Assembly: GCA_030647485.1 (NCBI GenBank)
Contig: JAUSJT010000003.1
Span: forward strand, 9,092-73,091
DNA length: 64,000 nt
Direction of reading: 5' to 3'
Source: a bacterium
Lineage (GTDB): Bacteria > Patescibacteriota > Minisyncoccia > Minisyncoccales > UBA10102
Position 1 is the stretch's first letter, and every line of letters starts with the position of its first letter. Shown piece by piece: positions 16,606 through 54,246 of the stretch. Below the pieces are notes generated by a model. That model saw only the letters and a list, made by a program, of their open reading frames with translations. It had not been told where the DNA came from and did no database searches. The translations under genes and the position numbers were made by a program.

Positions 16606-16786
16606 AGAAAACGCACTTTTATGCTACAACACGCAGGTAGTTAGTTTAATCAGTTTACAATGATATCTGCTTTGAGAAAACGATGTGCGTTCCGCAGTTT
16701 TCTAAAGCAGACCCTGGGTTTGCAGTATTCGCCCCTCGGGGACTCGGGGCGCGCAAACCCGCAAAAAGCAAAGCAGTTTGCTTTTT

Positions 16787-17750: not shown

Positions 17751-17994
17751 AAAGATTATCTTGTCAACCCCTTCTGGGGAAGTTCTCCACAGGCCTGCCT
17801 CGCCGAAGCTTTAGCGAAGGCGGGAGTTGAAGTGGGGGTGTTTTTGTGATATTCTTGAACGGTAGTTCTTTCTAGCTTTTTAGTGTATTCGCCTTTGGCG
17901 AACCCGGGCCGAGCCCTTGTATGTCGTTCCGTCTCATCGGCGGAACATGACAATTAAGGTTGCTCGGCCGACAAAAACCAAGCAGTTGGTTTTT

Positions 17995-23017: not shown

Positions 23018-23470
23018 ATGAAATGTCCTGTTTGTCAAAGTTCCACAAAAGTAACAAATTCAAGGGGGGCAGACCACGGAAGGGCCATTAAAAGAAGGCG
23101 CGTATGCCTGCAGTGCAAGAGACGCTTCACCTCCTATGAGCGCATTGAGCTGGTAGGGTTAACCGTGATAAAGCGCAACAGGTCAAAAGAGCCGTATCTG
23201 CGCCATAAGATAGAGTTAGGGCTTCGGAAAGCCCTAGAGAAGCGATCCGTCATAGAAGATCAGTTCCAGAAGCTTGTTTCTGCCATAGAAAATGACATTT
23301 TCAGCCTTGAAAAGGACACGGTTTCTTCCGAGCAGATAGGGCACATTGTACTTTCGCATCTCAAGGATTTTGATCAAGTTGCGTACCTTCGTTTTGCTTC
23401 CGTGCATAGGCATTTTAAGAGCGCACGGGCGTTTGAAAAAGAGATACAAAAATTAGAAAAGGCAAAATGA
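23018..23470 (+). CDS. nrdR: Transcriptional repressor NrdR
   Basis: N-terminal Zn ribbon CPVC...CLQC plus ATP-cone. Confidence 0.9.
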   Translation: MKCPVCQSSTKVTNSRGADHGRAIKRRRVCLQCKRRFTSYERIELVGLTVIKRNRSKEPYLRHKIELGLRKALEKRSVIEDQFQKLVSAIENDIFSLEKDTVSSEQIGHIVLSHLKDFDQVAYLRFASVHRHFKSARAFEKEIQKLEKAK

Positions 23471-26400
23471 TAACACTCACCAAAAAGGAGAAAGGGAGTA
23501 TCAATGGCAGATTTTCGGACAATGCGTTGCGCATGATGAAGAAGCGTTATCTCGCAGTAGACGAGAAAGGCAATCAGGAAACTCCGGCAGATATGTTCTT
23601 GCGCGTTGCAGCTTCTTTAGGTGAGGTGGAGAAAGAATACAAGAAAAGCCAAGCAGTCCAAGACAAGGTGACGCGGGATTTTTTTGACATCATGGCATCA
23701 AAAGAGTACACGCCAGCCGGCCGCACACTCACGAATTCCGGAGGGGATACTGCTTTGATTGCAAACTGCATTGTGCTTCCTATTCACGATTCCATGGAGA
23801 GCATCTTTCAGACACTGAAGGATGCTGCTTTGCTGCAGCAGGCAGGGTGCGGCTTGGGGTTTGACCTTTCTGAAATGCGGCCCGCCGACTTTGTCACCAA
23901 AAAATCACGAGGGCGGGCATCAGGTCCCGTCTCGTTTCTTAGGGTATATGACGCCGCATTCGCCACCATAAAACAGCAGGGCAGGCATGGGGCAAATATG
24001 GCCATGATGAGGGTGGATCATCCAGACGTTCTGGACTTTATTCATTCCAAGAAAAAGGAGGGAGAGATGCGAAATTTCAATATTTCCGTCACCATCACAG
24101 ACGAGTTTATGAAGGCCTTAGAGAAAACTCCCAATGCCCAGTGGATGTGCGAGTTTGGAGGTAAGAAGTATAAGCCCCACAACGTATTCCGCCATCCCAA
24201 CGGAGCTGTGTTTGGTTCGGAAGAAGTGGATATCACGGTAAAGCAGCTTTTTGACGAGCTGGTAGACTACGCGTGGTTGAACGGGGAGCCTGGCATTGCG
24301 TTTATTGATACGGTAAATAAAACTAATCCCCTGCCGGGCTTGGGCAAGATTGCGTCTTCTAACCCATGCGTGACGGGTGATACCCTTGTATCAACTAGTC
24401 ATGGCTTTCTTTCTATGGAGCGATTAGCTAAAGAATACGCTTCAGGCGGTCTTTACCTTGCCCAGGATTCTCGTACTCCTCGTGCGAGGTTTGTTCAAGT
24501 AGCAAAACTTGTTGCGGCGGGCGTATCCCAAGAAGATGTTGAGTACCAAAATATTCTTTCTTTTGAGAGGAGCGAGGAAGCGGTTCCAGGAACGCTGGTA
24601 AGGGCTTGGGAGACAGGGGTAAAGCCAGTGTATCGGCTTATTACTAATTCCGGGTATGAACTTGAGCTTACCAAAGATCACAAGGTGTTTACTCCTCAGG
24701 GGAAAACTCAACTTAAGGATCTTAAGCAAGGAGACAAGATTCTTCTTCAGTCTCAAGAAGGACTCTGGAGCAGTAAACACGAACTTTCCTTTGTTTCGCA
24801 GAATACCGTCAGAGGAAAGAATGGACATACCTACTCTTATAATTTTCCTTCTCGGTGGAGTCAGGAACTCGGTCAGGTACTTGGTTGGCTTATTGGAGAC
24901 GGCTGGATACGGGATATTCCAAAACAGTATATGGTTGGCTTTACTTTTGCACAGGAAGATAAGGAAGTTATGGAGTATCTCAAGCCAATCCTCAATGCGT
25001 GGTATAAAAACTCTGTTCGCAAGGAGATAAAGCGGGGGAACGGGGTGTATCATCTTGACTATGGCGCAAAGGAGTTTGTTCAATTTTTCAAAACACTCGG
25101 AGTAAAAGCAGTCAAGGCAGAAAACAAGGAAGTTCCTCTTGCTCTATGGACGGCTCCTCGAGAAGCGGTTACCGGTTTCCTGCAGGGTTTGTTTAGCGCC
25201 GACGGGACTATTAACATCTACGAAAAAAACCAGACGCGATACATCCGGCTTACTTCGAAATCAGAGAAGCTTTTGAAACAGACGCAAATTTTGCTTCTTA
25301 ATCTTGGTATTCGCTCCACTATTTACAATAGAAGCAGAAAGCCATCCGTGAAAATGGGGTACCAGAATGACGGTATCTGTTTTGAGTTGCAGATTGCGAG
25401 AACAAATATAGGGACATTTTTTGAAAAGATTGGATTTCTTGGCAATCACTATACACGAAAAGCAGAAACCCTCAAAGAGAAGAGATATTATGGAGAGTAT
25501 TTTGAGGACGAAGTGAAAGAAATAGAGTATGTAGGAATAAAAAAGGTGTATGATCTTACCGAGTCACTCACCCATTCTTTTATTGCTAATGGTATTGTTG
25601 TATCAAATTGCGGAGAACAATTCCTGCATGCGTATGACGAATGTAATCTAGGGTCTATTAACCTTGCAATGTTCGTGAAAGACAAGAAGATTGATTTCAA
25701 GAGACTGGGATTTGTGACGAGAACAGCAACCCGCCTCATGGACAACGTTATAGACCGCTTTGACTTCCCCGTTCCCCAGGTTACCCAAATGGCAAAGAGT
25801 AACAGAAGGATTGGTCTTGGCATTATGGGATTTGCCGACATGCTTTATCAATTGGGAGTTCAGTATAATTCCAAGGAAGGATTTGCAATGGGAGAAAGAG
25901 TCATGGGGTGTATCACAGACGAATCCCACAAAATGTCAGAAGTTCTTGCAAAAGAGAAAGGTGTGTTCCCCAATTGGAAAAAGAGCGTGTTTGCAAAAAA
26001 GAAAGTGAAGATGCGCAACGCGGCATTAACCACAGTTGCTCCCACGGGGTCTATTTCCATGATGTTTGACATTTCCTCCGGGATTGAGCCTAACTTTGCT
26101 TTAGCGTACATTAAGCAGGACAAAGACGGCCAGCAATACCGGTATCTCAACGCGCATTTTGAAAAAGCGCTGAATCAGCTGAAGATCGCAAAAGAAGAAA
26201 AGGAGAGGATTATGAAAGAGATTATAGAAAAAGGTACTATTCAGCATTTAACCACCTTGCCTCAAAAATTAAGAAATACCTTTGTGGTATCTATGGATAT
26301 CCCAGGGTTAGACCATATGGAAATGCAGGCTGCGTTCCAGCGGCACGTGGACAACTCTATTTCAAAGACCATTAACTTTGCAAACTCCGCAACAAAAGAG

Positions 26401-27102
26401 GAAATAGCCCAGAGTTTTGTGGCAGCGTGGAAGCTAGGATGCAAGAGCTGTACCGTGTATCGAGACGGAAGCAGGGTTATTCAAATACTCAATGTTGGGT
26501 CAGGAGAGAATATTATTGCTCCCACAGAGGCTCCGGTAAGAGAAGAAAAGAGAGAATTGCAGATAGCAAGCGCTGGGGGCATAGTGCCTCGCCGCAGGCC
26601 AGAGGTTATGGCAGGCAAGACCTATCGCGTGAAAACCGGCTACGGGAAACTTTACGTTACCATTAACAACGATGAAAAGGGCATGCCCTTTGAAGTATTC
26701 GCAACAATTGGGAGGAGCGGAGGGTTCTTCCAGGAGCAGTCAGAAGCAATATGCCGTTTAATGTCCCTTGCTTTGCGCGCAGGAGTAAAGGTGGAAGAAA
26801 TTTCAGACGAATTAAAAGGAATACGGGGGCCTATGCCAACCTTTACCGATAAGGGTACCATTCTTTCTCTTCCTGATGCGTTAGGGAAGATTCTAGAACA
26901 GCATGTTACCACAGCACTACAGATTGAAGATGTTATCGCTCGTCCAGAAAAACAAGAGGTGCTGCCCTTTGTCCCCAAGATAAAAGAAAAGTCTGTTGCG
27001 GACTTTGGATTTATGCCAGGATGCCCAGACTGCGGAGCGCCGCTTCTCATGCAAGAGGGATGTATTTCTTGTCAGGCGTGCGGATTCAGCAGGTGTTCTT
27101 AA
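23467..27102 (+). CDS. nrdJ: Class II (adenosylcobalamin-dependent) ribonucleotide reductase NrdJ, interrupted by an intein
   Basis: Extein motifs ...ASSNP|CGEQFL... and a C-terminal Cys cluster. 797-aa extein plus 414-aa intein. Confidence 0.85.
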   Translation: MITLTKKEKGSINGRFSDNALRMMKKRYLAVDEKGNQETPADMFLRVAASLGEVEKEYKKSQAVQDKVTRDFFDIMASKEYTPAGRTLTNSGGDTALIANCIVLPIHDSMESIFQTLKDAALLQQAGCGLGFDLSEMRPADFVTKKSRGRASGPVSFLRVYDAAFATIKQQGRHGANMAMMRVDHPDVLDFIHSKKKEGEMRNFNISVTITDEFMKALEKTPNAQWMCEFGGKKYKPHNVFRHPNGAVFGSEEVDITVKQLFDELVDYAWLNGEPGIAFIDTVNKTNPLPGLGKIASSNPCVTGDTLVSTSHGFLSMERLAKEYASGGLYLAQDSRTPRARFVQVAKLVAAGVSQEDVEYQNILSFERSEEAVPGTLVRAWETGVKPVYRLITNSGYELELTKDHKVFTPQGKTQLKDLKQGDKILLQSQEGLWSSKHELSFVSQNTVRGKNGHTYSYNFPSRWSQELGQVLGWLIGDGWIRDIPKQYMVGFTFAQEDKEVMEYLKPILNAWYKNSVRKEIKRGNGVYHLDYGAKEFVQFFKTLGVKAVKAENKEVPLALWTAPREAVTGFLQGLFSADGTINIYEKNQTRYIRLTSKSEKLLKQTQILLLNLGIRSTIYNRSRKPSVKMGYQNDGICFELQIARTNIGTFFEKIGFLGNHYTRKAETLKEKRYYGEYFEDEVKEIEYVGIKKVYDLTESLTHSFIANGIVVSNCGEQFLHAYDECNLGSINLAMFVKDKKIDFKRLGFVTRTATRLMDNVIDRFDFPVPQVTQMAKSNRRIGLGIMGFADMLYQLGVQYNSKEGFAMGERVMGCITDESHKMSEVLAKEKGVFPNWKKSVFAKKKVKMRNAALTTVAPTGSISMMFDISSGIEPNFALAYIKQDKDGQQYRYLNAHFEKALNQLKIAKEEKERIMKEIIEKGTIQHLTTLPQKLRNTFVVSMDIPGLDHMEMQAAFQRHVDNSISKTINFANSATKEEIAQSFVAAWKLGCKSCTVYRDGSRVIQILNVGSGENIIAPTEAPVREEKRELQIASAGGIVPRRRPEVMAGKTYRVKTGYGKLYVTINNDEKGMPFEVFATIGRSGGFFQEQSEAICRLMSLALRAGVKVEEISDELKGIRGPMPTFTDKGTILSLPDALGKILEQHVTTALQIEDVIARPEKQEVLPFVPKIKEKSVADFGFMPGCPDCGAPLLMQEGCISCQACGFSRCS
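24367..25608 (+). mobile_element. Intein (Hint domain + LAGLIDADG endonuclease) in NrdJ
   Basis: Begins CVTGDTLV after SSNP and ends IVVSN before C+1 of CGEQFL. Internal LGWLIGDGW and LQGLFSADGT motifs. Confidence 0.85.
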
Positions 27103-28202: not shown

Positions 28203-28235
28203 CAAAAACCGCCGACGAGGCGGAGTTTTGTTTTA
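28203..28235 (+). terminator. Rho-independent terminator
   Basis: ccgccgacgaggcgg hairpin followed by agttttgtttt. Confidence 0.65.
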
Positions 28236-28249
28236 TACGCTTTTAGCAG

Positions 28250-28321
28250 AGCGGGCGAAGGGAGTCGGACCCTCATCTCGTCCTTGGCAAGGACGCATAA
28301 TAGCCGCTATACGACGCCCGC
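28250..28321 (-). tRNA. tRNA-Gly(GCC)
   Basis: Acceptor GCGGGCG, anticodon loop TTGCCAA, discriminator U. Confidence 0.85.
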
Positions 28322-28416
28322 AGCGTAATAATTCACTATCAGTGAATTAAACGCTGCTGGAACGTTGAACGTAAAATTTGCAGAGCAGATTAACGTTCTT
28401 ACGTTCCGCAACGCTG
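28322..28416 (+). repeat. tRNA-associated structured repeat, family B, copy 1
   Basis: gcgtaataa-[palindrome]-aaacgctg hairpin, then ggaacgtt...ttacgttccgc hairpin. Same architecture as the copies at 53204 and 53833. Confidence 0.55.
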
Positions 28417-28426
28417 TGCCGCGGGT

Positions 28427-28498
28427 CAGAATCGGACTGACGACCAATGGTTCTTCAGACCAATGCTCTACCACTGAGCTACCGCGGCATTATATTTT
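28427..28498 (-). tRNA. tRNA-Phe(GAA)
   Basis: Anticodon loop CTGAAGA, D-arm TAGCTCAGTGGTAGAGCA. Confidence 0.85.
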
Positions 28499-28972: not shown

Positions 28973-28975
28973 GCG

Positions 28976-29090
28976 CTCACACGGTTCCCCCCGACCCCCC
29001 CTCTTTTAGAAACCCACGGTTTCTAACGTTCGCTTCGCTTACTGTTTTCCTTCACGGGGAGAACCGAATTTTGCTTTCGCAAAATTTCTC
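28976..29090 (-). repeat. ~105-nt structured inter-tRNA element, family A, copy 1
   Basis: Conserved hairpins ttagaaacc-cac-ggtttctaa and aattttgc-tttc-gcaaaatt, long-range pairing cggttcccc/ggggagaaccg. Similar to the copies at 30444 and 39494. Confidence 0.55.
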
Positions 29091-29091
29091 T

Positions 29092-30443: not shown

Positions 30444-30547
30444 ACGAGTCACACAGTTTCCCCCGACCCCCCTTCTTTTAACAACCTTCGGTTTTTAATA
30501 TTTTTCCACCACGGGGGAAACTGGAAATTTTGCTCGCACAAAATTTC
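30444..30547 (-). repeat. Family A inter-tRNA element, copy 2
   Basis: acacagtttcccccgacccccc...ttttaacaacc-ttc-ggtttttaa...cacgggggaaactgg...aaattttgctcgcacaaaattt. Collinear with copy 1. Confidence 0.55.
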
Positions 30548-49190: not shown

Positions 49191-49266
49191 GGCCCTATCG
49201 TCTAGTTTGGTCTAGGACGTCGGGTTTTCATCCCGAAAATCAGGGGTTCAAATCCCCTTGGGGCCG
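49191..49266 (+). tRNA. tRNA-Glu(TTC)
   Basis: Anticodon loop TTTTCAT. Confidence 0.85.
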
Positions 49267-49270
49267 CCTC

Positions 49271-50818
49271 ATGTCTCAAGCATATTACGTGAATGTTTCT
49301 CGAGCTTCAGATCTTCAAGATCCGAAAGAGCGTTTCCTCTATCGGTTTTTTGAAATGCTTCCAGGATTGCTGTCTTTCGGCAGTCTGGGGATTATAGTAT
49401 TGTTCTCATGGCTTTTTCCCATGCTGGTTGCCTTTTTTGTCTTTGGATTCATCATGTACTGGTTGCTTCGCACCGTTTATTTCTCGTTCCATCTGCGTTC
49501 AGGGTACAAGAAGATGAGGGAGCATGAAAAGACAGATTGGATGAAAAAGCTCCTAGACATTCCAAACTGGCAGGATATTTGGCATCTTGTTGTGGTTGTT
49601 GCGTATAAGGAACCTTTCGAAATGGTGCAAGAGTCTCTCCGTGCGGTAGCGAGTTCAGAATATCCTGCAGACAAGCTTTTAGTGGTGCTTGCCCTAGAAG
49701 AGCGCGCAGGAGTTTTAGCAAGAGAAATGGGGGTCGCTCTTGAAAAAGAATTCAAGGATTCTTTCTTTAGATTTTTAGTGACCTCGCATCCTGCCAACCT
49801 TTCAGGAGAAATCGCGGGGAAAGGGTCAAACGAGGCATGGGCAACAAAGGAGGCAAAAGAAAAGATTATTGACCCTTTGAGAATTCCATATGCCCGCATT
49901 ATTGAAACCTCTTTGGACGCAGACACTATAATCTCTCCAGGATATTTGAGCTGTCTTGCGTATCACTATGGTACCGTGCCCAATGCTTCAAAAGCCTCAT
50001 TCCAACCAATCCCATTATTCATCAACAATGCATGGCAGGCAGGAGCCCTGTCTCGCATCTTTTCTTTTTCTGCAACCTTTTGGCAGACCATGAACCAAGA
50101 GCGTCCAGAAAAGCTTATTACTTTTTCCTCGCACTCTATGAGTTTTCAGGCATTGGTTGACGTAGGATTCAAACAGCGGAACGTGGTTGCCGACGATTCC
50201 CACATTTTCTGGCAGTGTTTTCTGCACTATAACGGAGATTACCGAGTGTACCCTCTGTATTACTCAATTCGCATGGATGCAAACGTGGGCAAGAATTTCT
50301 TGGAAACCATGAAAAATATGTACAAACAGCAGCGGAGATGGGCATACGGAGTGAGCGAGATACCCTATTTTTTATTTGGGTTTTTGAAAAACAAGAATAT
50401 ACCTCTTTCACGGAAGATGTCTCTGGCTTTTGAGTTTATTGAAGGGCACTGGTCGTGGGCAACAGCGCCCATTCTTATATTCTTGTCAGGATGGCTTCCC
50501 TTGCTGTTGGGCGGTCAGGCATTCTCTGCAACCCTGGTTTCGTACAACCTTCCCATTTTTACATCCCGTTTGTTAACCCTTGCCATGCTTGGGCTGGTGC
50601 TGTCCGCGTTCATTAGTATTCAGATACTCTCCCCCACAAGGCCGGAGTATAGGAAGTGGCGCTTCGCGGCCACCGCATTCCAATGGGCGCTGTTTCCATT
50701 TACCATGGTTTTCTTTACCGCATTTCCCGCGTTAGACGCCCAAATGCGTTTGCTCTTGGGCAAATACATGGGTTTTTGGACAACCCCAAAGTTCCGGCGT
50801 CCAATCGATTCTGCTTAA
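49271..50818 (+). CDS. Membrane GT2 family processive glycosyltransferase (cellulose/PNAG-synthase-like); ORF extends to 49160 over the tRNA
   Basis: D,D,D and QQRRW motifs; several TM segments. Confidence 0.75.
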   Translation: MSQAYYVNVSRASDLQDPKERFLYRFFEMLPGLLSFGSLGIIVLFSWLFPMLVAFFVFGFIMYWLLRTVYFSFHLRSGYKKMREHEKTDWMKKLLDIPNWQDIWHLVVVVAYKEPFEMVQESLRAVASSEYPADKLLVVLALEERAGVLAREMGVALEKEFKDSFFRFLVTSHPANLSGEIAGKGSNEAWATKEAKEKIIDPLRIPYARIIETSLDADTIISPGYLSCLAYHYGTVPNASKASFQPIPLFINNAWQAGALSRIFSFSATFWQTMNQERPEKLITFSSHSMSFQALVDVGFKQRNVVADDSHIFWQCFLHYNGDYRVYPLYYSIRMDANVGKNFLETMKNMYKQQRRWAYGVSEIPYFLFGFLKNKNIPLSRKMSLAFEFIEGHWSWATAPILIFLSGWLPLLLGGQAFSATLVSYNLPIFTSRLLTLAMLGLVLSAFISIQILSPTRPEYRKWRFAATAFQWALFPFTMVFFTAFPALDAQMRLLLGKYMGFWTTPKFRRPIDSA

Positions 50819-53064: not shown

Positions 53065-53114
53065 GAGTAACCTACCTTGTATTTTACTCAAAACGAGATA
53101 TAATTCAAGTCATT

Positions 53115-53203
53115 GGAGAGGTGGCTGAGTGGTTGAAAGCGATACACCGCTAACGTATTAGGGGCTTTAAAACCCCTCGAGGGTTCGAATCCCTCCCTCT
53201 CCG
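53115..53203 (+). tRNA. tRNA-Ser(GCT)
   Basis: Class II tRNA; anticodon loop CCGCTAA (C33 is unusual). Confidence 0.7.
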
Positions 53204-53290
53204 CAACGTAATAAATTTGCTTTGCAAATTTAAACGTTGCTGGGACGTTTAATCTCTGAAAGAAATTATTACGTCCCGCCAATTAGGAAA
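53204..53290 (+). repeat. Family B tRNA-associated repeat, copy 2
   Basis: acgtaataaatttgctttgcaaatttaaacgttgctgggacgtt...ttacgtcccgcc. Confidence 0.55.
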
Positions 53291-53310
53291 AGATACTCTG
53301 CATAACGTAT

Positions 53311-53745
53311 ATGCCAGAAGAACAAGTCAATATTTTCAAGAGAGTCGCAGGGCCTATCATTCATAGATTTCAGATTAAGGATATGCTCCAAGTTATCATT
53401 GGAGCCACAATCCTTTCTATTCCGGTTGCATATACCGGAGAGGTTTGGCAACTGGCAGAGACACTGCCCATGCGCAATATTCTTGGTTTTCTTGGACTTT
53501 CGCTTGTATTCATTTCTCTCTTTGTATATCATCACTATCACCGCGAAGAAACGGAGATGAGGTGGGGAGAGTTTGCAAAGCGAGTACTCTCAACCTATAT
53601 CCTCTCTTTTTTGGTTGTAGCACTCATCTTAACTATGATTGAGCGAGCTCCCTGGGGCGCAGATTGGCTGCTTGCGGTAAAAAGAACAATTCTCGTAGCC
53701 TTTCCCGCTTCAATGAGCGCCGTGGTTGCAGACGTGTTGAAATAA
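53311..53745 (+). CDS. Small polytopic membrane protein, hypothetical
   Basis: 144 aa, three or four TM segments. Confidence 0.5.
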   Translation: MPEEQVNIFKRVAGPIIHRFQIKDMLQVIIGATILSIPVAYTGEVWQLAETLPMRNILGFLGLSLVFISLFVYHHYHREETEMRWGEFAKRVLSTYILSFLVVALILTMIERAPWGADWLLAVKRTILVAFPASMSAVVADVLK

Positions 53746-53748
53746 CGA

Positions 53749-53832
53749 GGAGGGGTCGGATAGTGGTTTATTCCACCAGTTTTGAAAACTGGCGTCCGCA
53801 AGGACTCGTGAGTTCGAATCTCACCCCCTCCG
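53749..53832 (+). tRNA. tRNA-Ser(TGA)
   Basis: Anticodon loop TTTGAAA, long variable arm. Acceptor and T arms identical to tRNA-Ser(CGA). Confidence 0.8.
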
Positions 53833-53990
53833 CAGCGTAATAAATTTTGCTTTAGCAAAATTTAAACGCTGTTGGAACGTTGAAATTTCAAGAGGAAATT
53901 TCTTACGTTCCGCCTTCAGATGATACGTTCAACGCTACTGAGACGTTTAAATTTTCACAGAAAATTTATTACGTCTCGCCTTCTTATGTT
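53833..53990 (+). repeat. Family B repeat, copy 3, with the second hairpin unit duplicated
   Basis: gcgtaataaattttgctttagcaaaatttaaacgctgttggaacgtt...ttacgttccgcc, then a second gagacgtt...ttacgtctcgcc unit. Confidence 0.55.
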
Positions 53991-54246
53991 TTATTACGTT
54001 TATATCATTGAAAGTTTGAAAAATAAATCATTGTATATCGGATATACTGTTGACTTGAAGAAAAGATTCAAAGAACATAACGATGGCAAAAGCTTGGCAA
54101 CAAAACCATTCAGACCATATAAACTTATCTTCTATGAAGCGTTTATTGATAGAAAAGATGCCAAGGCGCGGGAAGTATATTTAAAAAGCGGCTGGGGATT
54201 TAGGAGCATTAAGAAAATGATGGAAAATTATTTCAACGTAAGATAA
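53986..54246 (+). CDS. Small stand-alone GIY-YIG nuclease-domain protein (ORF extends to 53920)
   Basis: YVYIIES...LYIGYT...R..EHN GIY-YIG motif. Confidence 0.6.
   Translation: MFYYVYIIESLKNKSLYIGYTVDLKKRFKEHNDGKSLATKPFRPYKLIFYEAFIDRKDAKAREVYLKSGWGFRSIKKMMENYFNVR

Follow-up and report, generated by a model that had tools for sequence, protein, structure and literature searches.

The hairpin pairs that stand against tRNA genes at three places in this stretch of DNA raise the question of what such a structure does there: does it act in the tRNA transcript, does it serve as a site for a protein, or is it a piece of DNA that moves? The window (the whole stretch of 64 kb that was analysed) contains 20 tRNA genes as called by ARAGORN and Rfam. 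Its proteins, among them RecG, FtsH and an intein-containing ribonucleotide reductase, are bacterial, and their closest relatives are found in Parcubacteria/Paceibacteria-type CPR MAGs. The large subunit of the ribonucleotide reductase (23467-27102) is split by this intein, which has a LAGLIDADG endonuclease domain. Most tRNA genes in the window encode N73-C74 without CCA, the full CCA being encoded by the Val-tac, Leu-gag and Ile-tat genes.

An inverted dimer at three tRNA loci

A covariance model was built from 67 copies of the two-hairpin module and run unfiltered over the whole window. It matched at 28320-28411 (locus 1, 72 bits), at 53203-53281 (locus 2, 82 bits) and at 53832-53981 (locus 3), where a full module (53832-53915, 82 bits) is followed by a degenerate second module (53922-53981, 48 bits). 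No further match above 15 bits was present in the 64 kb, with the next best scoring 14.8 bits (E 0.2), and an earlier note on this DNA, which had proposed one two-hairpin element at three loci, is borne out in this respect. The element is thus present at 3 of the 20 tRNA genes. The opposite strand scores almost equally well in the model, with the plus strand giving the higher score at each locus. Shuffled sequences fold much less stably than the elements (z = -5.2 to -7.8 for the latter), and the motif CGTAATAA occurs eight times against 1.13 expected.

All hairpins share one design: a 7-bp outer stem that includes ACGT, then a small, conserved internal loop of asymmetric form, and finally a variable, A/T-rich inner stem of 8-10 bp closed by a 3-5-nt loop, giving units of 36-49 nt and a whole element of approximately 70-95 bp. 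The consensus strings given in the earlier note are correct for both hairpins. Hairpin 1 reads CGTAA(T/G)AA..TT(A/C)AACG and hairpin 2 reads CGTT(T/G)AA..TT(A/C)TTACG, so that hairpin 2 is the hairpin 1 unit inverted (internal loop T/TT versus AA/A). The module as a whole is accordingly one imperfect palindrome present twice, as a pseudo-symmetric inverted dimer.

At locus 1, the element fills the spacer between two minus-strand genes, tRNA-Phe(gaa) (28416-28488), which is the upstream partner in a Phe-element-Gly unit, and tRNA-Gly(gcc) (28249-28321), the 5' end of which adjoins the element; a canonical terminator follows this unit after tRNA-Gly (28209-28223). Hairpin 1 (28320-28357, plus strand) reads GCAGCGT-AA-TAATTCACT..AGTGAATTA-A-ACGCTGC, its first two bases being the complement of C2 and G1 of tRNA-Gly(gcc), and hairpin 2 (28359-28407, plus strand) reads GGAACGT..ACGTTCC and has one more ACGT-boxed stem nested inside it; GC-AA comes next (28408-28411). 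The CGCCCGC sequence which had looked acceptor-like at this locus corresponds to the 5' end of tRNA-Gly read on the complementary strand, and hence the element is antisense to the tRNA transcript here.

The other two loci are on the same strand as their tRNA genes. Locus 2 follows tRNA-Ser(gct) (53115-53204, plus strand, with a TATAAT -10 box at 53097-53102): hairpin 1 (53203-53240, plus strand) begins at the discriminator base G73 and at C74 of the tRNA, and hairpin 2 (53242-53277, plus strand; GGGACGT..ACGTCCC) is followed by GCCA at 53278-53281. An ORF for a DUF2391 membrane protein (53311-53745, plus strand) lies between this gene and tRNA-Ser(tga) (53749-53833, plus strand), with locus 3 beginning at G73 and C74 of the latter. 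This locus consists of hairpin 1 (53832-53872, plus strand), hairpin 2a (53874-53911, plus strand; GGAACGT..ACGTTCC, then GCCT) and the degenerate second module on the same strand, which combines a remnant of unit 1 (53925-53938) with a full hairpin 2b (53940-53977, plus strand; GAGACGT..ACGTCTC, then GCC). The duplicated second unit reported earlier is therefore present, together with the unit 1 remnant. Two further descriptions apply to loci 2 and 3 only: a GCC follows hairpin 2 there but is GCA at locus 1, and the position after an acceptor 3' end is that of the tRNA-Ser genes (gct and tga), with the complement of a tRNA-Gly 5' end taking its place at locus 1. The inner stems differ among the window copies, so none of these is a recent copy of another.

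No terminator-like or promoter-like site and no U-tract was found inside the elements at the window loci, in agreement with the earlier view that they are not classic terminators. Readings as an intrinsic terminator or as a promoter were both considered and rejected, as the elements have no G+C-rich stem with a U-tract and no promoter-like sites were found in them. There is also no promoter or terminator between the tRNA-Ser(gct) promoter and a gene for a GIY-YIG nuclease (86 aa, UPF0213/Slx1-like; 53986-54246, plus strand) downstream of locus 3, so this region is probably a single transcript as judged from its sequence signals. At another place in this DNA (49191-49273), 2 nt separate tRNA-Glu from the ATG of a downstream ORF (approximately 515 aa), which is glycosyltransferase-like in relatives and has no Shine-Dalgarno sequence; this tRNA-ORF junction is conserved in relatives and suggests tRNA-punctuated, nearly leaderless mRNAs.

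Distribution in the CPR and constraint on the stems

We expanded the search to 185,579 species genomes using an exact-pattern scan for unit 2 plus YYCGC, which gave at least 118 loci, against a chance expectation which by our own estimate is a few tens. Approximately 110 of these are in CPR MAGs of many classes; the groups among the matches listed include Levy-, Gottesman-, Shapiro-, Davies-, Roizman-, Woyke-, Portnoy-, Staskawicz-, Nealson-, Andersen-, Berkel- and Peribacteria, Saccharibacteria and Paceibacteria. Some matches are labelled as 'Gammaproteobacteria' or 'Oligoflexia' MAGs, yet have a CPR-type context, and approximately eight of the at least 118 lie within genes of unrelated bacteria and were discarded as chance matches (L013, L024, L063, L072, L080, L085, L096). 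Among the matches listed there were one to four strict matches per MAG, and one or two per megabase-scale CPR chromosome. The unit 2 pattern had no match in the IMG/VR viral contigs. In Rfam 15, only tRNA was found at the gathering threshold and nothing covered the element at E ≤ 1, the weak Rfam matches being tRNAs or tRNA-derived only. A description of the element was not found in the literature searched on GIY-YIG proteins, CPR tRNA loci and MITE/REP repeats, and it is apparently undescribed.

As in the window, the copies mark tRNA gene ends: in 73/126 of the matches listed, unit 2 is located 35-45 nt past a tRNA gene on the same strand, with hairpin 1 filling the gap, and in such same-strand copies hairpin 1 starts exactly at G73-C74 and is paired with both. 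Of the nearby tRNAs among these matches, 59/92 are tRNA-Ser, with Asp, Gly, Arg and Trp next, and the genes directly followed by the element are mostly those for tRNA-Ser, Asp, Arg or Trp. Counted by gene within the same set, a unit is present downstream of 64/119 tRNA-Ser, 10/12 tRNA-Asp and 10/46 tRNA-Arg genes, and of none of the Ala, Cys, Glu, Ile, Leu, Thr or Val tRNA genes. Attachment to tRNA 3' ends, as described in the earlier note, breaks down at locus 1 and at approximately 14 other copies among the matches listed, which are antisense in the same way and adjoin genes for tRNA-Gly, Pro, Gln or Asp at the 5' end. In these copies the tRNA is on the opposite strand, and the element directly follows the complement of its first bases (..CCCGC/AACGT..). 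Some of the listed copies do not have a tRNA nearby and are still preceded by ..CGC.

The tRNA genes in these loci include eight called as tRNA-Ser with anticodon ACT (CPR loci L005, L007, L029 and L081), an anticodon which is unusual for bacteria. At least three of these genes (L005, L029, L081) are directly followed by the element and a GIY-YIG gene, while L007 has seven tRNA genes (six Ser, one Arg) within 3.5 kb. In L050 and L099, the sequences upstream of the elements resemble the 3' half of a tRNA into which an additional G+C-rich hairpin has been inserted, within the T arm or just past it; ARAGORN does not call these sequences.

Selection on the stems was assessed with an alignment of 67 distinct full modules from many CPR lineages. 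Standard pairs make up 98.6% of the pair cells in this alignment, compared to 81.8% in shuffles and 35-46% in slid controls, and 17 of the 30 pairs have changes on both sides. The number of compensatory cells (double changes) is 312 in the 67 sequences versus 85±11 in shuffles, consistent with the earlier description of compensatory variation, and the stems are thus kept in the copies elsewhere. The covarying pairs include those between tRNA positions 75/76 and their partners (AA/TT, AG/CT, CA/TG), as well as the pair beside the internal loop (U-A, G-C, A-U). These data support a real, selected and structured repeat rather than a chance arrangement, and the alignment and genome scan together establish, at sequence level, a discrete structured element across the CPR. 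With regard to the molecule under constraint, G·U is expected to be far better tolerated than A·C in a one-stranded RNA. The 1980 cells contain 18 G·T mismatches, as many A·C mismatches (18) and 10 of other kinds, a comparison of small counts in A/T-rich stems which is supporting rather than decisive. G·T is as rare as A·C, and copies run either way with respect to transcription; taken together, this suggests that both strands are equally constrained, and points to the DNA, or to both strands, as what is under constraint.

Gain and loss at tRNA ends and a linked GIY-YIG gene

All three window loci have empty counterparts in close relatives. In the contigs L126 and L127, the NUDIX protein is 85% identical and the full Val-Leu-Val-NUDIX-Phe-Gly synteny is retained, while the distance from tRNA-Phe to tRNA-Gly is only 14 nt and the element is absent; NUDIX homologues below about 80% identity have lost synteny and were of no use for site comparison. 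Similarly, no copy occupies the sites of loci 2 and 3 in relatives that keep the synteny and have a RecG 85-86% identical, in which tRNA-Ser(gct) and tRNA-Ser(tga) are separated by 6 nt (TTTCGA) or 10 nt (AACGTAAAAA) with no element, DUF2391 ORF or GIY-YIG gene. Downstream of tRNA-Ser(tga) the relatives differ among themselves. The difference between the tRNA-Ser genes is a 541-bp segment (53205-53745, element plus DUF2391 ORF) which is absent in relatives L135 and L139. There is no CCGC at its right junction, and hence this is not a simple single insertion. A metagenome search with the DUF2391 protein gave one distant match (55% identical) on an unrelated, non-syntenic contig. L135 retains AACGTAAAAA between its tRNA-Ser genes, with 7 nt in common with the left end of the element, and this may be an excision footprint.

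At the tRNA-Glu gene the situation is inverted. Its 3' end is empty in the window and in four relatives (..GGGGCCGC/CTCATGTCTCAAG, the part after the junction starting CTCATG), while in L142 (RecG 87% identical) the site is filled and reads ..GGGGCCGC, then AACGTACAAAATCAACGATTTTTACGTTGCTGGAACGTAAAATTGAGAAGCAATTTGTACGTTCCGC, then CTCATGTCTCAAG. This is a precise insertion of a 69-bp module with a direct repeat of CCGC and otherwise collinear flanks. In a comparison of flanks, C stands directly ahead of the element in 98/98 copies, which was not demanded by the search, the next base out is C in 84%, and the right end YYCGC is followed by C in 70% of the 98 copies. The CCGC repeat is seen at all three window loci, only 3-4 nt (CCGC) are repeated at the element ends, and the orientation of the element is fixed relative to the flanking CCGC and goes both ways relative to tRNA transcription. 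From these comparisons of alleles and junctions, both the insertion next to CCGC, with CCGC or CGC repeated at the far end, and the gain and loss of the element at tRNA gene ends next to CCGC are clear. No integrase gene adjoins the loci in the window.

Copies within one genome are also more alike than copies from different genomes. When two loci within a genome are compared, the inner sequence is identical in 7/25 pairs for unit 1 and 5/25 pairs for unit 2, against 9/4728 and 8/4728 pairs between genomes, and there is no sequence constraint on these inner parts. Sometimes only one unit is common to two same-genome copies, a pattern of sequence sharing that indicates modular exchange.

Other tRNA spacers of the window contain different repeats. 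A second spacer family occupies the gaps from Leu-gag to Val-tac (28973-29091) and from Ile-tat to Val-gac (30444-30547), with a AAATTTTGC..GCAAAATTT hairpin directly after the encoded CCA and then a GGGGGGTCGGGGG box. The Leu-gag/Val-tac gap is only 13 nt in the syntenic L126, and this family is therefore also an insertion. Terminator-like hairpins (AAAAAGCAAAgcagTTTGCTTTTT) at 16762-16786 and 17972-17994 adjoin the 5' ends of tRNA-Arg-tct and tRNA-Arg-cct, and in L135 a block of approximately 60 nt with three small hairpins, absent from the window, is found beside the 5' end of tRNA-Arg-gcg.

The GIY-YIG gene (PF01541, E 5.8e-18) starts with an ATG 6 nt past the GC after the last hairpin of locus 3, without a Shine-Dalgarno sequence, and a GIY-YIG start was found 1-34 nt after the module, or in one case 67 nt after it, in 31/120 elements among the matches listed. 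In the fetched loci, 45/48 homologues at least 55% identical have an ACGT-boxed hairpin within 110 nt upstream, and close variants of this hairpin are present in the remaining 3/48. For homologues below 55% identity this was 1/20, and for random windows 2.7%. Most loci in this association had been picked for containing the element and only five are independent; in all 5/5 genes picked by protein similarity alone, a tRNA gene (Ser or Asp) is followed by hairpin modules and the ATG. The adjacency in these loci shows a link between the element and one GIY-YIG subfamily. The paralogues below 55% identity have other hairpins upstream, either CCGCC..GGCGG or a minimal GAAACGT-nnn-ACGTTTC, often after tRNAs (L035, L038, L051, L055, L067, L070, L076, L089 and others), which as a sequence pattern hints at several nuclease/hairpin pairings.

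The gene lies outside the hairpin pair, on its downstream side and in constant order, and nothing was found to be conserved 3' of it when a second transposon end was looked for; for these two reasons the arrangement is not a classical transposon with two ends. Several GIY-YIG copies are frameshifted or truncated, gene-less and gene-bearing alleles form a presence/absence polymorphism among relatives, and the gene was present in none of the antisense solo copies at tRNA-Gly 5' ends among the matches listed. The family itself, for which 649 homologues were detected, is highly conserved and retains the catalytic residues (invariant Y17, I18, G19, R27, H31, E51 and E63). An AF2 model of the 86-aa protein is a single domain (pLDDT 90), without a separate DNA-binding domain. 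It is closest to UPF0213 protein BH0048 and the Slx1 nuclease domain (rmsd ~2 Å, 28-30% identity), UPF0213 proteins also being its nearest solved relatives, while the I-TevI catalytic domain is a far weaker structural match and the TIGR01453 match is below the cut-off.

A proposed mobile element with a candidate nuclease, and its alternatives

Family B, as we refer to these repeats, is not a member of any named family, and is best classed by kind as a palindromic non-autonomous element with a candidate cognate nuclease. By analogy it would work most like the REP/REPIN-BIME elements with their RAYT transposases (PMC3116915, PMC2817692, PMC3733652) or like IS200/IS605-type hairpin elements, while differing from both in their defining features. 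In common with REP/REPIN, it consists of short imperfect palindromes (36-49 nt, in line with palindrome units of ~20-40 nt) with an asymmetry that gives orientation, arranged as inverted dimers, and it is extragenic, non-autonomous, subject to compensatory change and linked to one nuclease family. However, REP palindromes have a GTAG (or CGTC) tetranucleotide tag at one end (PMC3733652), whereas Family B has no conserved GTAG, has ACGT arms on both sides and contains CGTC only when the variable stem base is C. The inner stems of its dimer units are unrelated, its three loci in 64 kb, all at tRNA ends, contrast with the high dispersed copy number of REPs, insertion is strictly at tRNA gene ends, the host group is the CPR, and the adjacent gene encodes a GIY-YIG protein flanking one side rather than an HUH/Y1 transposase. 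It resembles IS200/IS605 in having a hairpin to be recognised near each end, no usual terminal inverted repeats and a fixed tetranucleotide target resembling the distal end (CCGC and YCGC here), but its hairpins are opposite and directly adjacent with no cargo or ORF between them, no TnpA or TnpB is associated, and both strands appear equally constrained.

Likenesses to integron attC sites are the folded single-strand site, the conserved basal boxes, the polarity set by unpaired bases, the variable centre and the adjacent promoterless ORFs; the differences are that no integrase or attI was seen, the hairpins precede the ORF and the target is a tRNA gene end. Integrative elements that target tRNA genes have an integrase and duplicate a longer part of the tRNA 3' end; the repeat observed here is of 3-4 nt. 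On the protein side, Slx1, YhbQ and YazA belong together in a family of structure-selective nucleases (PMC7017083), which acts on branched or folded DNA and is the best match in both sequence and fold. Unlike Slx1, the protein encoded here has no RING/PHD domain and no Slx4-like partner, and unlike the family in general it is encoded in several copies, some of them degraded, and goes together with a repeat, which suggests a selfish role rather than one in repair.

Our preferred explanation, to which we assign a probability of approximately 55%, is that Family B represents mobile DNA of the CPR, a small element of low copy number which is located at CCGC at tRNA ends and mobilised by a nuclease, with the GIY-YIG protein as the candidate. 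The feature recognised would be the hairpins folded from single-stranded DNA or extruded as a cruciform, and the adjacency of the genes makes the small Slx1/UPF0213-type GIY-YIG nuclease the putative cognate enzyme. Copies with the nuclease gene downstream (about a quarter) may be regarded as 'autonomous', expressed by read-through from the tRNA promoter, and the remaining copies as solo, non-autonomous elements. Staggered cuts by GIY-YIG enzymes are established for I-TevI, and by analogy a staggered cut of this type at CC/GC would leave the short target repeat. CCGC is far too frequent to account alone for the specificity for tRNA ends, and we assume selection against other sites: copies would survive only where insertion is harmless, which may be exactly the termini of tRNA genes, where RNase P and 3' processing would strip the element from the transcript. 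The permitted sites would then be those after G73-C74 of tRNAs ending in ..CC-G73, or antisense before tRNAs beginning with GCGGG, and the restriction to tRNA termini would reflect survival and not target choice alone. We favour a mobile element over a functional RNA because of the empty sites, the 69-bp insertion at CCGC, the identical inner sequences within genomes, the strand-symmetric mismatches and the tight link to one GIY-YIG subfamily. The earlier suggestion of a functional RNA or protein-binding structure can accordingly be retained in part: the element is structured and selected, and protein binding is plausible with the nuclease as likely partner, while it is probably not a dedicated RNA.

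The main rival is a role at the RNA level, which we consider rather improbable as the primary explanation. The hairpin pair would act in the tRNA co-transcript, where the cut at G73 leaves a downstream RNA that begins flush with a very stable stem; this could protect or insulate the downstream mRNA (GIY-YIG, DUF2391, NUDIX, HD), or form an RNase III-type site that splits tRNA from mRNA. Such a role fits the sense copies well, in which hairpin 1 starts exactly at G73 and takes up G73-C74 in its stem, as it does the very stable RNA folds, the probable single transcript running into the GIY-YIG gene, and the downstream ORFs that start 1-34 nt past hairpin 2 without a Shine-Dalgarno sequence. However, in locus 1 and the other antisense copies the same structure is antisense to the adjoining tRNA and would compete with its acceptor stem, G·U is tolerated no better than A·C, the same tRNAs are without the element in close relatives, the empty tRNA-Glu allele already has its ORF start 2 nt past the tRNA, and there is no Rfam family. 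A mobile element can have such side effects on RNA as well.

A second alternative, which we think unlikely, is that a free-standing homing GIY-YIG gene enters the 3' flanks of tRNA genes, with the hairpins as part of its cassette or as an autoregulatory operator, and the solo pairs as remains after decay or deletion of the gene. A precedent exists in phage T4, in which SegB is a free-standing GIY-YIG homing endonuclease encoded in a tRNA gene cluster (PMC13096335). Like SegB and I-TevI, the gene linked to Family B appears to be a selfish GIY-YIG gene in an intergenic slot beside tRNAs, with presence/absence variation among relatives, read-through expression and the conserved catalytic Y, Y, R, H/N and E residues of homing endonucleases. 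The tight adjacency in constant order and the existence of degraded copies agree with this, and the high conservation of the protein across distant CPR classes suggests horizontal spread. Homing endonucleases differ, however, from a bare catalytic domain of 86 aa that lacks a DNA-binding domain and is nearer to Slx1/UPF0213 than to I-TevI, and the gene comes with a hairpin-pair element that also moves alone. The solo copies keep perfectly compensated stems, are found antisense at tRNA-Gly 5' ends without the gene, and insert precisely by themselves (the 69 bp at tRNA-Glu), and so look like independent units. Finally, an immobile host site, for example a terminator or attenuator of unusual type, or a place where a nucleoid or replication protein binds, would be in keeping with the strong conservation of the ACGT and AA/A loop boxes across CPR classes and the constant position beside highly transcribed genes, but is very improbable given the absence of a U-tract, the canonical terminators elsewhere in the window (including that after Phe-element-Gly), the empty orthologous sites, the identical same-genome copies and the 17 of 20 window tRNA genes without an element.

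Returning to the mobile element, we tentatively extend it to a possible new class of hairpin elements found throughout the CPR, in which a minimal Slx1/UPF0213 GIY-YIG enzyme would recognise folded DNA and cut at CC/GC, with elements parked at tRNA termini and promoterless genes (GIY-YIG, DUF2391 and others) recruited behind tRNA promoters in an integron-like manner. Should the nuclease and the hairpins indeed belong together, this would be the first partnership of the REP/RAYT kind to involve a GIY-YIG enzyme. The abundant small GIY-YIG proteins of the CPR would gain a concrete, testable candidate substrate, and the short defined target (CCGC beside a folded element) offers a simple in vitro test. 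The element may also explain why genes are sitting directly behind tRNAs in the CPR. These are ultra-small bacteria forming an uncultured radiation, with tiny, streamlined genomes and few recognised mobile elements, and if our reading is true it would provide a new handle on their genome dynamics and horizontal exchange.
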